Assembly: GCF_058153355.1 (NCBI RefSeq)
Contig: NZ_CM177019.1
Reading direction: 5' to 3' (one strand)
Length of the DNA: 64,000 bases
Shown here: positions 52,707-57,787 of the stretch, in pieces
How positions within the stretch are numbered: the first letter of the stretch is position 1
Layout: the number at the start of each line of letters is the position of its first letter
Made by a program: the position numbers and the translations under genes
Notes under the pieces: model-generated
The model's input: only the letters and a program-made list of their open reading frames with translations
Told to the model about the DNA's origin: nothing
Database searches by the model: none

Positions 52707-52780
52707 GCGGGCGTAGTTCAATGGTAGAACGAGAGCTTCCCAAGCTCTATACGAGGGTTCGATTCCCTTCGTCCGCTCCA
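52707..52780 (+). tRNA. glyU: tRNA-Gly (anticodon CCC)
   Basis: GCGGGCGTAGTTCAATGGTAGAACGAGAGCTTCCCAAGCTCTATACGAGGGTTCGATTCCCTTCGTCCGCTCCA: cloverleaf, anticodon loop cuuCCCaag, T-loop GGTTCGATTCC, encoded CCA. Confidence 0.95.
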
Positions 52781-52944: not shown

Positions 52945-54309
52945 ATGCTGCTTTCAGACCTTGCCATCAGGCGCGCGAAGCCGAAAGAAAAGGCTTATAC
53001 ACTCAATGACGGTAACGGGCTTTCGTTGCTCATTGAGCCGAACGGTTCGAAAGGGTGGCGACTGCGCTACAGGTTTGCAGGAAAGCCCAAAATGTTGTCG
53101 TTGGGTGTGTACCCTGATGTGTCTCTGTCTGATGCCAGGGCGGCAAGGGATGAGGCTAAAAGGCTTCTTGCTGGTGGTATAAATCCAAGTGAGGCCAGAA
53201 AAGCCCAAAAGCGAGAACAGGCGAGCAAATTTGGCAATACTTTTGAGGGTATCGCTCGCGAATGGTACGAAAAGCGGATCGACAGGTGGTCATCGTCATA
53301 CGCCGAGGAAATGATCGAGACGTTTGAAAAAGACGTTTTTCCGTACATTGGCGGTAGGCCGATCGCAGAAATTAAGCCGATGGAATTGCTGGCGGTTCTT
53401 TCCCGTCTTAATGACCGTGGTGCGACTGAAAAATTGCGTAAGGTTCGCCAGCGATGTGGCGAGGTGTTCCGGTACGCAATCATCACCGGACGCGCCGAAT
53501 ATAATCCAGCCCCTGACCTGGTGAGCGCATTTGCTCCACATAAAAAAGAGCATTACGCCTGTTTGAAGGCCGATGAACTGCCGGAATTTTTCCGCGTTTT
53601 TAATACGTACACCGGAAGCCAGATCGTCAAACTGGCAATGCGGCTATTAATTCTGACAGGTGTCAGACCCGGGGAATTACGGCAGGCAGAATGGCGGGAG
53701 ATCGATTTTGATAATCGTTTGTGGGAAGTGCCTAAAGAACGAATGAAGATGCGCCGTCCGCATTGCGTGCCATTACCAGAACAGGCGATAAAAATACTGG
53801 AGCAGTTAAAAAACATGACAGGTCAGTATCAGTTTATTTTCCCCGGTCGTATTCACCACAGTAAACCAATGAGTGAAATGGCAATGAATGTGCTCATTCG
53901 TCGTATTGGCTACGCCGGGCGCGTTACTGGTCATGGATTCCGGCACACCATGAGCACCATTTTGCATGAGCAGGGCTATAACACCGCGTGGATAGAGACA
54001 CAGCTTGCGCACGCCGATAAAAACTCAATTCGTGGCACATACAACCATGCGCAATATCTGGATGGCAGACGCGAAATGCTCCAGTGGTATGCCGACTATA
54101 TGGATTCGCTCGAGCATGGCGGAAATGTGGTGCATGGTGAGTTCGGAAAATGCGGGGGACTGGTTGAGTATACAGTAGTAGACTTTGAGCGACTAAAAAC
54201 GGCTGTGTCTAGGGTCGCTCCTGAAAACCCGTACACCTCTGCGGGCTGGCACAGCCACTATGGTAGAGGGCGCGAGGTGACGCGTGATCGATATTGCCGA
54301 ATTACTTAA
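52945..54309 (+). CDS. P4-family (tRNA-targeting) tyrosine integrase, about 454 aa
   Basis: Start MLLSDLAIRRAKPKEKAYTLNDGNGLSLLIEPNGSKGWRLRYRFAGKPKML is the classic P4-type Int N-terminus (arm-binding domain). Catalytic R..HxxR..Y region present (GHGFRHTMSTILHEQG; RGTYNHAQY). Lies 165 bp after the tRNA 3' end. Confidence 0.9.
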   Translation: MLLSDLAIRRAKPKEKAYTLNDGNGLSLLIEPNGSKGWRLRYRFAGKPKMLSLGVYPDVSLSDARAARDEAKRLLAGGINPSEARKAQKREQASKFGNTFEGIAREWYEKRIDRWSSSYAEEMIETFEKDVFPYIGGRPIAEIKPMELLAVLSRLNDRGATEKLRKVRQRCGEVFRYAIITGRAEYNPAPDLVSAFAPHKKEHYACLKADELPEFFRVFNTYTGSQIVKLAMRLLILTGVRPGELRQAEWREIDFDNRLWEVPKERMKMRRPHCVPLPEQAIKILEQLKNMTGQYQFIFPGRIHHSKPMSEMAMNVLIRRIGYAGRVTGHGFRHTMSTILHEQGYNTAWIETQLAHADKNSIRGTYNHAQYLDGRREMLQWYADYMDSLEHGGNVVHGEFGKCGGLVEYTVVDFERLKTAVSRVAPENPYTSAGWHSHYGRGREVTRDRYCRIT

Positions 54310-54604
54310 CGCAGAAAAGAATAATTTCATTAGCCTGAGAGAGTTAATAGAGCGTATTAAATTATCTCAACCGAAAGCTACTACATCCCAGATAGTAAGT
54401 TTTCTTTATCAGACGCGGCAGAAATTACCCGAATGGGTTAAGTGGGATGAAATGATGGGCATTGAGCAAACATCGGAGAATCCTTTTGATGGGGATTGGT
54501 CTTTATCAGAGGTTCTTGAAGGCATTTTAAGACTAGGCTTTGTGCCAGAGGTTGAAGATTCTGTACCCCTCGCTATCGATGATAGCGACGATATTCCGTA
54601 TTGA
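54284..54604 (+). CDS. hypothetical protein (106 aa) with SSB-like acidic C-terminal tail ...DDSDDIPY; AT-rich cargo
   Basis: GTG start at 54284 six nt after GAGGTG, overlapping the int 3' end; about 40% GC versus about 52% backbone; C-terminus LAIDDSDDIPY resembles the SSB DDDIPF tip. Confidence 0.55.
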   Translation: MIDIAELLNAEKNNFISLRELIERIKLSQPKATTSQIVSFLYQTRQKLPEWVKWDEMMGIEQTSENPFDGDWSLSEVLEGILRLGFVPEVEDSVPLAIDDSDDIPY

Positions 54605-54623
54605 TGAAGACTTAAGGTGAATT

Positions 54624-55067
54624 ATGGCAGATGAAGTTTATTTGGCTCGTGCTTGTGATAAGTATGGTTTTCGTCGAGCAGAGCTTAAAGAATTTGCTGA
54701 AAAACTAGGGGTTAATTTATTTTCCCCAATGGATGAAATAACCCAGTCCATTCCTGAGGTTGCTGCTAGTGATTCTTTGAATAATGGGCCGACTGTTGAT
54801 GAATTACGTGCGGAAATTGCTTTACTTAAAGCGCGAATTGAAGAACTTGAAAGCGAACGACCAATTCTCTTAAATAAATACAGGGATAATGATCCGCTAT
54901 ATCTGGCTATCGAGATTAGAAACAGAGAGTGGGCCAATTACGACCCGGAGAATGATCGCGCCACCAGGGGAAACCAGGGCGCGATTACTACTGAGCTTGA
55001 AAAACGAGGTTTTACCTCCCGACAGGCCGCATCTATTGAGCTTGTCGCCTGTCCTATCAAACGATGA
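54624..55067 (+). CDS. hypothetical protein (147 aa), predicted coiled-coil centre; AT-rich cargo
   Basis: ATG at 54624 with AAGGTGA RBS 6 nt upstream, 19 nt after previous stop; LRAEIALLKARIEELESER heptad-like segment. Confidence 0.55.
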   Translation: MADEVYLARACDKYGFRRAELKEFAEKLGVNLFSPMDEITQSIPEVAASDSLNNGPTVDELRAEIALLKARIEELESERPILLNKYRDNDPLYLAIEIRNREWANYDPENDRATRGNQGAITTELEKRGFTSRQAASIELVACPIKR

Positions 55068-55080
55068 AGCCTTACCCTAG

Positions 55081-55230
55081 AGGTATCTCATGTTTTGTTC
55101 GCGTCTCACCCTAAGGGTAATCAGACCTCACCCTTAGGGTATTTTTGTATGCTTTCCCATCAATTTTACTATTACCCTTAGGGTAAAAATATTCCCGATT
55201 ACCATTAGGCCTGAGGGTATGAAAATATTC
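55081..55230. promoter_or_regulatory. array of near-palindromic ACCCT(A/T)AGGGT motifs upstream of alpA (putative operator array)
   Basis: taccctagaggta (55081), caccctaagggtaat (55115), cacccttagggtat (55137), tacccttagggtaaaa (55181), cctgagggtatg (55218); spacings about 23, 43 and 36 bp. Confidence 0.55.
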
Positions 55231-55287
55231 GTTATTTCTGTGCCATGATTACCTCGTCAAATTGAGTAGACGTTATGAGGTAAATAT

Positions 55288-55485
55288 ATGTCAAATACGC
55301 TTATTCGTTTAACGGAAGTTCAGCGTAGAACTGGATATAGCAAGGCATGGATTTATCGCCTTATGGGGCAAGGTAAATTTCCTGCATCAGTTAAAATTGG
55401 CTCGCGAGCTATTGCTTTCGTTGAGAGTGAAATTGACGAGTGGATTAATCAGCGTATTGCTGAATCACGCGGAACAGCTACCTGA
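55288..55485 (+). CDS. alpA: AlpA-family phage/island transcriptional regulator (MerR-like HTH, 65 aa)
   Basis: MSNTLIRLTEVQRRTGYSKAWIYRLMGQGKFPASVKIGSRAIAFVESEIDEWI is the canonical AlpA/prophage CP4-57 regulatory protein pattern. Confidence 0.88.
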   Translation: MSNTLIRLTEVQRRTGYSKAWIYRLMGQGKFPASVKIGSRAIAFVESEIDEWINQRIAESRGTAT

Positions 55486-55563: not shown

Positions 55564-56364
55564 ATGAAATTTCCAAAAACGCCCATACAGGGGCAGGGCT
55601 TCGTTCGGCTTGAAAACCAGAATCTGCAAAATTTTGGCAAAATTATCCCGGTTATTTCCGGCGTTATTGGCGGGCGTGAAACCAATATTGTTAGCGCCAG
55701 AGCGTTGCATAAGGCGCTCGGGGTAGGCCGTGATTTCACAACCTGGATTAAAGTACGCATTGATGAGTACGGATTTAAAAAGGGCGTGGATTTTGAATTC
55801 GTAGAAAATTTGACCTCCCCCAATCCGGTGAGCGCAAAATCTCGCCAACGTATAGAGCACGACTACCTGAGCACTATCAACATGGCGAAAGAACTGGCGA
55901 TGGTCGAACGCACCGAACAGGGCCGCGCCGTTCGTCAGTATTTCATCAAATGCGAGGAGGAGCTACACAAGGTAGCGCCTGTGCGTTCCGCAGCGTTACG
56001 CCGGGAACTGAAAGCCCGTATCACTGTTGCCAGCTACTTTAAGCCAATGTGCGCCGCGCTGGAGGCGTACCGGGCAGAACTGGGTAAAAACACTCTACAG
56101 CACCACTACACCACGGAAGCTAATATGCTGGCGCGTATCGTGCTGGGTGGCATGACTGCAAAACAGTGGGCACTGGCGAACGGCATCACAAGCGAACCAC
56201 GCGACCACATGAGCACGTTGCAGCTTGAGCACCTTTCTTACCTTGAGCAGAGCAATATCACGCTGATTGAGTTAGGCCAGGACTACCACCAGCGGAAAGC
56301 TGAATTAATTCGTCTTTCGCAGCGCTGGTTAGCCCGTCGCATGGAGGAAAACAACCATGTGTAA
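55564..56364 (+). CDS. AntA/AntB-type antirepressor-like protein (266 aa)
   Basis: N-terminal segment SARALHKALGVGRDFTTWIKVRIDEYGFKKGVDFEF fits the AntA domain consensus (..L...L.....F..WIK.RI.EYGF..G.DF). Confidence 0.7.
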   Translation: MKFPKTPIQGQGFVRLENQNLQNFGKIIPVISGVIGGRETNIVSARALHKALGVGRDFTTWIKVRIDEYGFKKGVDFEFVENLTSPNPVSAKSRQRIEHDYLSTINMAKELAMVERTEQGRAVRQYFIKCEEELHKVAPVRSAALRRELKARITVASYFKPMCAALEAYRAELGKNTLQHHYTTEANMLARIVLGGMTAKQWALANGITSEPRDHMSTLQLEHLSYLEQSNITLIELGQDYHQRKAELIRLSQRWLARRMEENNHV

Positions 56365-57299: not shown

Positions 57300-57787
57300 C
57301 CTTTATTAAGGTAATCGATGAAAAGACAAAGCCCGCAGGCGCTACCAACACCAACGGGCTTCTAACCACCAACGATAGAAAGCGTATCGAGGTAGCTATG
57401 TTAAATCATACCACACACCCGCAAGGGCGGGACTCGCACAACCTGAATAAAGCGGGGGTAAAAAACCAGTTGATCGCCACTGCCAGCCAGGGCTATGATT
57501 TATCTGCACCAGCAAAATCTGGTGCCCGGATTGGCGTCCTGAAAATTCTGAAGGCGACATATGACGCGCCGAGCGTCTTTTTTTATGTCGTAGGTCTGAC
57601 TCACCCATTTTTTGGGCGTTGGTGTATAATCCAGCGCCTTTGTCAATCAATGGTGGCTCAGGCGGGGGCTTCTTCGGAAGCGCCGGTATCCTTCAGAGCC
57701 GGTTACGCCAACCCTGTCTGGGCTACCACCAGCGAAATTGGCGTTTCCGGTGGTAGCGTAACCTGCTATCTGAAGGAGGCTGCCGAC

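Follow-up and report, generated by a model that had tools for sequence, protein, structure and literature searches.

A phased palindrome array upstream of alpA in a P4/PICI-type satellite island and its linkage to HypC, a candidate binding protein

Organization of the locus

The DNA considered here is a 64,000-nucleotide stretch (hereafter the window) of contig NZ_CM177019.1 in NCBI RefSeq assembly GCF_058153355.1. It contains an island of the Gram-negative phage-inducible chromosomal island (PICI)/P4-like satellite group, in which a tRNA-Gly gene is followed by the integrase gene int, two small genes termed hypN and hypC, a 220-bp interval containing a series of ACCCTWAGGGT palindromes, alpA, antA, and then the isrK/C4 RNAs (Table 1). 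The palindromes form a conserved, helically phased set of sites fixed relative to the -10 element of the alpA promoter (PalpA), and across related islands their presence is strictly tied to the HypC C-terminal domain, with no such tie to AlpA, Int, or AntA. The array is read here as a putative operator of alpA, with HypC as its probable binding protein and, more tentatively, as an activator of PalpA.

Table 1. Features of the island segment in the window; site centers are given relative to the predicted transcription start site (TSS) of PalpA
Feature	Position	Strand	Evidence and remarks
tRNA-Gly (CCC)	52707..52780	+	ARAGORN, Rfam tRNA; integration site and left island boundary
int, P4-type tyrosine integrase	52945..54309	+	Pfam Arm-DNA-bind_3, Phage_int_M, Phage_integrase; points into the island
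int-alpA RNA motif (RF02996)	54202..54269	+	Rfam, 45.5 bits (gathering score 35.8); directly upstream of the slot gene
hypN	54284..54604	+	List of open reading frames (ORFs); variable first slot gene, 106 aa
hypC	54624..55067	+	147 aa; predicted palindrome binder
S0, degenerate palindrome ACCCTAGAGGT	55074-55084	none	2 mismatches; center ~-177, matching the family site at ~-175
S1 ACCCTAAGGGT	55108-55118	none	Center ~-143
S2 ACCCTTAGGGT	55130-55140	none	Center ~-121
S3 ACCCTTAGGGT	55174-55184	none	Center -77; most positionally invariant site of the family
Proximal composite 16-bp inverted repeat, halves CCATTAGG and CCTGAGGG	55202-55217	none	Center -46.5; strongly conserved in relatives
Predicted extended -10 of PalpA, TGcCATGAT	55241..55249	+	TGnNANNNT at the same place in 39/39 distinct class-A regions
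alpA leader hairpin	55249..55283	+	RNAfold; 5' arm TTACCTCGT 55249-55257, 3' arm ATGAGGTAA 55275-55283; 3' arm buries the Shine-Dalgarno sequence GAGG (55277-55280)
alpA	55288..55485	+	65 aa, PF05930, E 2.4e-19; master activator/excisionase-type regulator of Gram-negative satellites
AntA/AntB antirepressor-family gene	55564..56364	+	Pfam PF08346; first gene of the Bro zone
isrK and C4 RNAs	57506..57733	+	Rfam, C4 79.9 bits, isrK 68.8 bits; P4 CI-type immunity RNA system
IS66	~58075-60438		ORFs, Pfam; beyond isrK/C4
D5_N primase fragment, truncated	61149-62186		ORFs, Pfam; IS66 and IS110 on its flanks

The palindrome array

Exact matches to ACCCTWAGGGT occur three times in the window, all of them before alpA (S1 to S3), with start-to-start distances of 22 and 44 bp, and nowhere else in it. 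Shuffled sequence predicts 0.02 copies, and three copies were reached in 0 of 100 shuffles, placing the motif well above background frequency. A first-pass annotation, made from the sequence of the window, had claimed at least three strong and two degenerate copies at spacings of about two and four helical turns in front of alpA. The strong copies prove to be exactly three, the measured distances agree with the claimed spacings, both degenerate copies are present with two mismatches each, and the downstream gene encodes a true AlpA. The annotation was right in placing the array before alpA but let it begin at 55081, whereas its left end lies slightly further left, the full extent being 55074-55218. 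Copies with two mismatches are close to background in the window as a whole (22 found vs 15 expected), and S0 and the proximal copy were therefore judged by conservation rather than by number. Both coincide with positions conserved in related islands, and all five elements originally named fit the positional pattern of the family. A repeat finder returned the same sites and resolved the fifth copy (GGCCTGAGGGT, 55208-55218, two mismatches, center ~-43) as the right half of a composite inverted repeat at ~55200-55219. Many relatives have an additional half-site, (T)TACCCT, directly upstream of the -77 palindrome, as in ttacccttACCCTAAGGGT, so that three half-sites stand in a row; its counterpart in the window (~55165-55173) is degenerate (ttactatt).

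Of 5,426 complete Escherichia coli genomes, 147 contain an intergenic region related to this one; phage genomes gave no blastn match to it. Other E. coli have intact relatives of the island, about 15 kb in length, at glyU or thrW. Five E. coli versions of the region keep the palindromes while the central base is free, and their copy number varies from 3 to 5 through 33-bp duplications. When IMG/VR was scanned for two motif copies 5-35 nt apart, 63 loci were obtained, 37 of which show the arrangement hypC-[array]-alpA, including islands whose AlpA is only 74-85% and whose HypC is 45-62% identical. In these diverged islands, the background intergenic DNA can no longer be aligned, whereas the palindromes remain. 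The other 26 matches are hairpin terminators or tandem repeats in unrelated contigs, except for one locus (L172) that pointed to beta-proteobacterial relatives. The motif-pair matches listed from genome_contigs are mostly unrelated repeats of Chloroflexota, Desulfobacterales, and Bacteroidota with gaps of 7-8 nt, and no relative of AlpA, HypC, Int, or AntA is encoded in the loci retrieved among them. Many metagenome-assembled genomes of Chloroflexota, Desulfobacterales, and Cytophagales (L007-L126) carry the same 11-mer paired 7-8 nt apart, often several times per contig, which is presumably an unrelated dispersed repeat or hairpin element.

Thirty-nine distinct upstream regions, from islands with AlpA as low as 74% identical, each have 2-5 copies of the motif. 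Site centers fall at ~-77, -120, -143, and -175 when positions are taken from the conserved TGnNANNNT element; in the thrW type, the upstream sites are displaced by a 33-bp duplication. Spacings between neighboring sites cluster at 22, 32-33, and 42-44 bp, that is, at whole helical turns, with a Rayleigh R of 0.88 for a period of 10.5-10.7 bp. With 17 representatives stacked on TGnNANNNT, information content peaks at the -77 site, the proximal inverted repeat (-54 to -38), the extended -10, and the leader, the proximal repeat reaching 1.4 bits per column compared with 0.3-0.4 in the spacers. In every case, exactly 22 nt separate this repeat from the TG of the extended -10 downstream. A search for the motif elsewhere, as the first-pass annotation had suggested, found the array to be the only such site both in the window and in whole related islands, with no second cluster in the intact relatives, including at the far island end. 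Conservation against a diverged background, helical spacing, and the fixed distance to the -10 support the earlier proposal that the palindromes constitute a protein-binding operator array.

Linkage of the array to the HypC C-terminal domain

Eighty loci were retrieved by AlpA similarity alone, 79 of them with enough upstream sequence, and the 450 bp upstream of alpA were scored for the motif. Where a HypC homolog lies just upstream, at least two motif copies at no more than one mismatch are present in all cases (40/40 loci), whereas none of the loci lacking HypC (0/39) has any copy, even at one mismatch. The motif-free loci include islands whose AlpA is 97% identical (L214-L218), whose integrase is 98.8% identical (L218, L248), or whose AntA is 83-89% identical. 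In two pairs of loci (L255 vs L254, L266 vs L262), the motif is present in one and absent from the other although their AlpA proteins are identical, and no AlpA residue position separates the motif-bearing from the motif-free group. The AlpA of EcCIMP1 is 81% identical and shares without change the stretch RRTGYSKAWIYRL across the presumed helix-turn-helix (HTH), yet this island has neither a motif upstream of alpA nor a slot gene. Since near-identical or identical alleles occur without the motif, AlpA and the integrase are ruled out as specificity determinants.

The same linkage is seen where hypC itself is mosaic. The window and its nearest relative, L294, have in common only the HypC C-terminal domain and the array, the N-terminal sequences being unrelated. 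The mosaic breakpoint lies inside hypC (window 54284-54950 vs L294 8261-8900); the C-terminal domain and the array are near-identical, and hypN and the N-terminal two-thirds of hypC are unrelated. Three natural chimeras (L220, L251, and L256) combine the N-terminal domain of another class of slot gene, class D, with a HypC-type C-terminal domain, and they carry ACCCTNAGGGT, not the class-D repeat. In Herbaspirillum frisingense and similar contigs of 51-56% G+C, HypC-like proteins keep only the C-terminal domain (~30% identity), and in each of these distant, beta-proteobacteria-like relatives the array begins ~10 nt after the stop codon of the HypC-like gene; in two of the distant relatives, L172 and L335, alpA is not the next gene. 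Homologs from Morganella, Yersinia, Enterobacter, and a metagenome behave in the same way, the array accompanying the HypC C-terminal domain. The codons of the terminal ...VACPI.R sequence vary synonymously, and selection on that stretch is therefore on the protein and not on its DNA.

These observations establish that the motif is strictly linked to the HypC C-terminal domain. Because it tracks hypC perfectly and is independent of AlpA, Int, and AntA alleles, the binder is most probably island-encoded, which narrows the original suggestion of either an island or a helper-phage regulator. On this comparative evidence, HypC itself is probably the protein that binds the array.

The HypC and HypN proteins

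AlphaFold2 models of HypC show a short helical segment at the N-terminus, followed by a disordered linker, a coiled coil, and a highly conserved four-helix C-terminal domain of ~70 aa ending in ...VACPIKR. Its homologs across Enterobacterales are mostly stand-alone proteins of ~145-155 aa, while in many E. coli HypC is fused to an N-terminal part (250-265 aa), and in other genera hypN and hypC form a separate gene pair overlapping by 4 nt. The possibility that hypN and hypC of the window are one frameshifted gene was rejected, as the two-gene form is common in other genera and the N-terminal parts in the window are unrelated to the fused E. coli type. An exhaustive hidden Markov model search among 1.84 billion proteins found only 86 clusters at 50% identity; the conserved domain stands nearly always at the extreme C-terminus, behind N-terminal parts of 0 to ~400 aa. 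The putatively DNA-proximal domain is conserved, and the other half is swapped between islands. No homolog of HypC was found by tblastn in 50,697 phage genomes, and neither HypC nor HypN had a match in Pfam, PHROGs, or a PDB profile search, weak matches to C3 ADP-ribosyltransferase and coiled coils being dismissed as noise. HypC is best read as a new protein family without a known fold.

One database protein of 344 aa (P0098) has a LacI-type ligand-binding domain and, where LacI proteins have their HTH, part of the HypC coiled coil and C-terminal domain. It would be informative if real, but it was not used as an example of a natural swap of DNA-binding domains, since the HypC domain is incomplete in it and a deletion or an assembly artifact is the probable origin.

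Other gene classes in the int-alpA slot

The position occupied by hypN and hypC is a variable slot. Among IMG/VR loci L191-L270, at least seven unrelated, unannotated gene classes lie between nearly identical int and alpA genes, and in each a class-specific repeated motif occupies the corresponding place before alpA: class B has inverted repeats of the ATGGTGGG/TACCCACC type, class C two perfect TACCGCAATTGCGGTA palindromes with centers near -40 and -63, and class D direct repeats of CTTCCAAA. No motif of one class was found in another. HypC and the class-B protein have homologous C-termini (hhalign probability 82%, E 1e-5), and the class-B half-site TACCCACC resembles the class-A half-site. 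Judged from sequence, such class-specific motifs are the behavior expected of co-evolving regulator/operator pairs.

Promoter and leader of alpA

The TSS and -10 of PalpA are predicted positions, the latter placed on the extended -10 element listed in Table 1; a similar element was recognized by eye in other slot classes. A consensus sigma-70 scan of the interval found no promoter, and no -35 element is recognizable. A leader hairpin that would sequester the alpA Shine-Dalgarno sequence is kept by at least seven different stem sequences among 49 distinct leaders folded with RNAfold. The predicted TSS falls inside the 5' arm of this hairpin, and the full hairpin is therefore expected only on read-through transcripts from int and the hyp genes, where, by analogy with the fold-back inhibition of IS10, it would insulate alpA from read-through.

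In related islands, PalpA is off without AlpA or a helper phage; AlpA autoactivates it, and helper phages induce it (PMC6092414, PMC11773190). The same papers document helper-driven induction and packaging for islands other than the one in the window. AlpA activates its own promoter in EcCICFT073, where PalpA expression needed AlpA (PMC6092414), and contributes to this activation in EcCIMP1.

Island context

The hallmarks of a satellite are present in the window, namely int beside a tRNA gene, a co-oriented alpA downstream, antA, and the C4/isrK RNAs; the zones of this Gram-negative PICI/P4-like group have already been described (PMC10111431). The primase module, whose DUF927 or primase genes are intact in relatives, is represented only by a truncated D5_N fragment, followed by an IS110 transposase (61149-63420 for the two together). 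The island is a degraded member of its group, as judged from the D5_N fragment and IS110 that follow IS66, and it is probably immobile even though its alpA control region is intact.

Alignment with L294 shows that the int stop codon at 54157-54159 has changed from TGA to GGA, leaving the ORF ~50 codons longer (to 54309); the extended ORF crosses the int-alpA RNA motif and enters the start of hypN. This RNA motif, Rfam RF02996, occupies the same position before slot genes of several classes (L248, L233, L002, L340, and L337) and was not detected in EcCIMP1 or L214, and it may be a leader of the slot gene rather than of alpA. It belongs to the same int-to-alpA interval of the same islands as the array, but differs in lying upstream of hypN and has no overlap with the palindromes.

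Proposed mechanism and alternative explanations

We propose that the palindromes serve the alpA promoter of this P4/PICI-type satellite as a cis-regulatory operator, which the island's own HypC reads. Through its coiled coil, HypC would form a dimer or higher oligomer, and its conserved C-terminal helical domain would recognize the two abutting half-sites ACCCT and AGGGT; the compact 5-N1-5 palindrome suggests that the coiled coil ends in two closely apposed reading heads. The strong sites at -77, -121, and -143, together with the decayed one at -177, all on one helix face, may nucleate a cooperative complex that fills the weak promoter-proximal site centered near -43 to -47. HypC would then act as a class-II-like activator that fires the AlpA positive-feedback loop, and its variable N-terminal part, together with HypN, may be the module that senses helper phages. 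An activator is favored because PalpA has an imperfect extended -10 and no -35, and a core promoter of this weak kind, preceded by a poor site next to the -35 position and, further out, by strong sites that share one helix face, has the layout of activator-dependent promoters. DNA binding by HypC, the sign of its regulation, the TSS, and helper sensing are inferences, and the full reading, in which HypC both binds the array and activates PalpA, is offered as a tentative one that falls short of even confidence.

Several points weigh against this reading. The end of hypC and the array are contiguous, so physical linkage inflates their association, and the loci are phylogenetically related, so that the 40/0 table does not amount to 79 independent trials. 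HypC has no recognizable DNA-binding fold and no recognizable HTH. The TSS is a predicted position, and islands lacking a slot gene are functional, making the module one solution among several.

The nearest rival holds that HypC is a master repressor and a functional analog of Stl of the Staphylococcus aureus pathogenicity islands (SaPIs). HypC would then coat the array cooperatively and silence PalpA and the AlpA loop, until contact of a helper-phage protein with HypN or with the variable N-terminal part of HypC inactivated it. The number of unrelated slot gene classes resembles the diversity of Stl; hypC is co-directional with int and thus plausibly expressed in the quiescent state; in a Herbaspirillum-type element the HypC homolog is co-oriented with an XRE (CI-like) gene; the proximal sites of L337 reach ~-30 from the putative TSS; and a positive-feedback switch benefits from a repressor. 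In Enterobacterales, however, the sites overlap neither the -10, the TSS, nor the -35 position, their nearest edge being at ~-38, and the core promoter looks intrinsically weak. PalpA of EcCICFT073 needed AlpA for expression (PMC6092414), and no autoregulatory site is found upstream of hypN. The activator is favored over an Stl-like repressor, which is somewhat unlikely in absolute terms yet nearly as plausible.

Alternatively, a factor encoded elsewhere, whether a helper-phage activator or repressor or a host regulator, may read the palindromes, with hypC being an accessory gene (e.g., for anti-phage defense) inherited together with its 3' flank. Helper phages do induce PalpA of related islands by a factor that has yet to be named (PMC6092414, PMC11773190), and both the missing DNA-binding fold of HypC and the physical linkage of gene and array would fit such an arrangement. 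The association nevertheless persists where HypC has diverged to 34-71% identity, where N-terminal domains have been exchanged, and in beta-proteobacterial elements without alpA downstream. HypC homologs are absent from the phage genomes searched, true phage contigs among the 63 IMG/VR matches hold no comparable motif array, and the class-specific motifs would demand a matching set of unlinked factors. An external reader is considered unlikely.

It is improbable that the array is some other HypC-tied cis site, serving recombination (as integrase arm-type sites), replication, packaging, or partition instead of transcription. Par and pac systems also have phased site arrays beside the gene of the binder, and the array is not directly before alpA in L172 and L335, but site positions are locked to the alpA -10, and no second cluster exists elsewhere in intact islands. 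Integrase arm-type sites in particular were rejected, the array lying 2.3 kb from the att core and tRNA and showing no co-variation with the integrase (L218, L248), as a 98.8%-identical Int occurs without the motif.

Even less probable is an RNA-level role, in which S1 and S2 would form a hairpin that, with a T-run, terminates read-through from hypC. In the window these two are complementary at 11/11 positions across an 11-nt loop and are followed by ATTTTTGT, and the thrW-type T-run has 7 T. The reading was rejected on the grounds that the central bases of neighboring sites are complementary in 16 of 53 distinct pairs, near chance, that loop lengths range from 10 to 44 nt, and that diverged relatives have no T-run; it also leaves helical phasing and the fixed -10 distances unexplained, and a terminator scan of the + strand was empty, with no Rfam family on the array. 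Least credible is that the palindromes are autoregulatory binding sites of AlpA, whose self-activation is known in EcCICFT073 and EcCIMP1, and this was rejected because the sites do not accompany the AlpA allele.

Beyond the single locus, the int-alpA slot may be a swappable sensor-regulator cassette, in which a variable N-terminal module recognizes the helper and a C-terminal DNA-binding domain of a new fold reads its own phased array, HypC and ACCCTNAGGGT being the first pair defined; this is put forward as a possibility, and a doubtful one. If true, it would supply the long-missing link between helper infection and alpA induction, a Gram-negative counterpart of Stl. In 2018, the way in which helper phages induce alpA in Gram-negative PICIs was described as unknown, and the searchable literature yielded no later resolution (PMC6092414, PMC11773190). 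The locus offers a testable handle on the question, with a defined 11-bp operator, an architecture relative to PalpA, and a candidate protein family of ~86 clusters. If HypC-type slot proteins are sensors, the helper specificity of satellites might be predicted from sequence, and operator/regulator pairs could become orthogonal parts for engineering PICI-based delivery vehicles. Should HypC not be the reader, the array would still be a clean, conserved nucleoprotein architecture awaiting its factor.

Comparison with known systems

No description of the motif, the slot genes, or HypC was found in the searchable literature, which likewise describes no slot gene or operator array upstream of alpA for islands of the EcCICFT073/EcCIMP1 type. 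The alpA region of these two islands is similar to that of the window in its tRNA-adjacent int, co-oriented alpA, Bro/AntA zone, C4/isrK, and primase, as well as in PalpA being the point where helper induction and AlpA autoactivation converge (PMC6092414, PMC11773190, PMC10111431). EcCIMP1, despite the similarity of its AlpA, differs in lacking the hypN/hypC slot genes and any ACCCTNAGGGT copy.

With SaPI Stl, HypC would share the role of an island-encoded, hypervariable regulator located beside int and controlling the operon that starts the satellite cycle, its diversity being plausibly driven by helper specificity. Stl, in contrast, is a proven repressor with a classical HTH, and its gene and target are divergently transcribed. 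HypC lacks a known DNA-binding fold, its gene runs in the same direction as alpA, and its putative sites are upstream of the core promoter, all beyond ~-38 from the predicted TSS.

The layout is also reminiscent of lambda CI at OR/PRM and of promoters of the MelR/AraC type, with several dyads at whole-turn spacing, strong distal sites, a weak site at the -35 position, and no -35 element. The HypC-array palindromes differ in being unusually compact (5-N1-5, half-site centers 6 bp apart), closer to the abutting half-sites of bZIP-type proteins than to HTH operators, and the protein family is unrelated to lambda CI, MelR, or AraC. P4 Vis and the late promoters governed by P2 Ogr/P4 delta likewise illustrate satellite promoters under small activators of satellite or helper origin, and Vis is an AlpA homolog. 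Ogr/delta sites have the form TGT-N12-ACA and are centered near -55; the palindrome motif is unlike them and does not track AlpA. The Pseudomonas aeruginosa AlpA antiterminator with its ABE element (GGGACG) was set aside as a different, larger protein that has the name alone in common. Operator arrays that control the master switch of a mobile element are a familiar kind of element; the HypC family, the compactness and phasing of the sites, and the modular slot are not.

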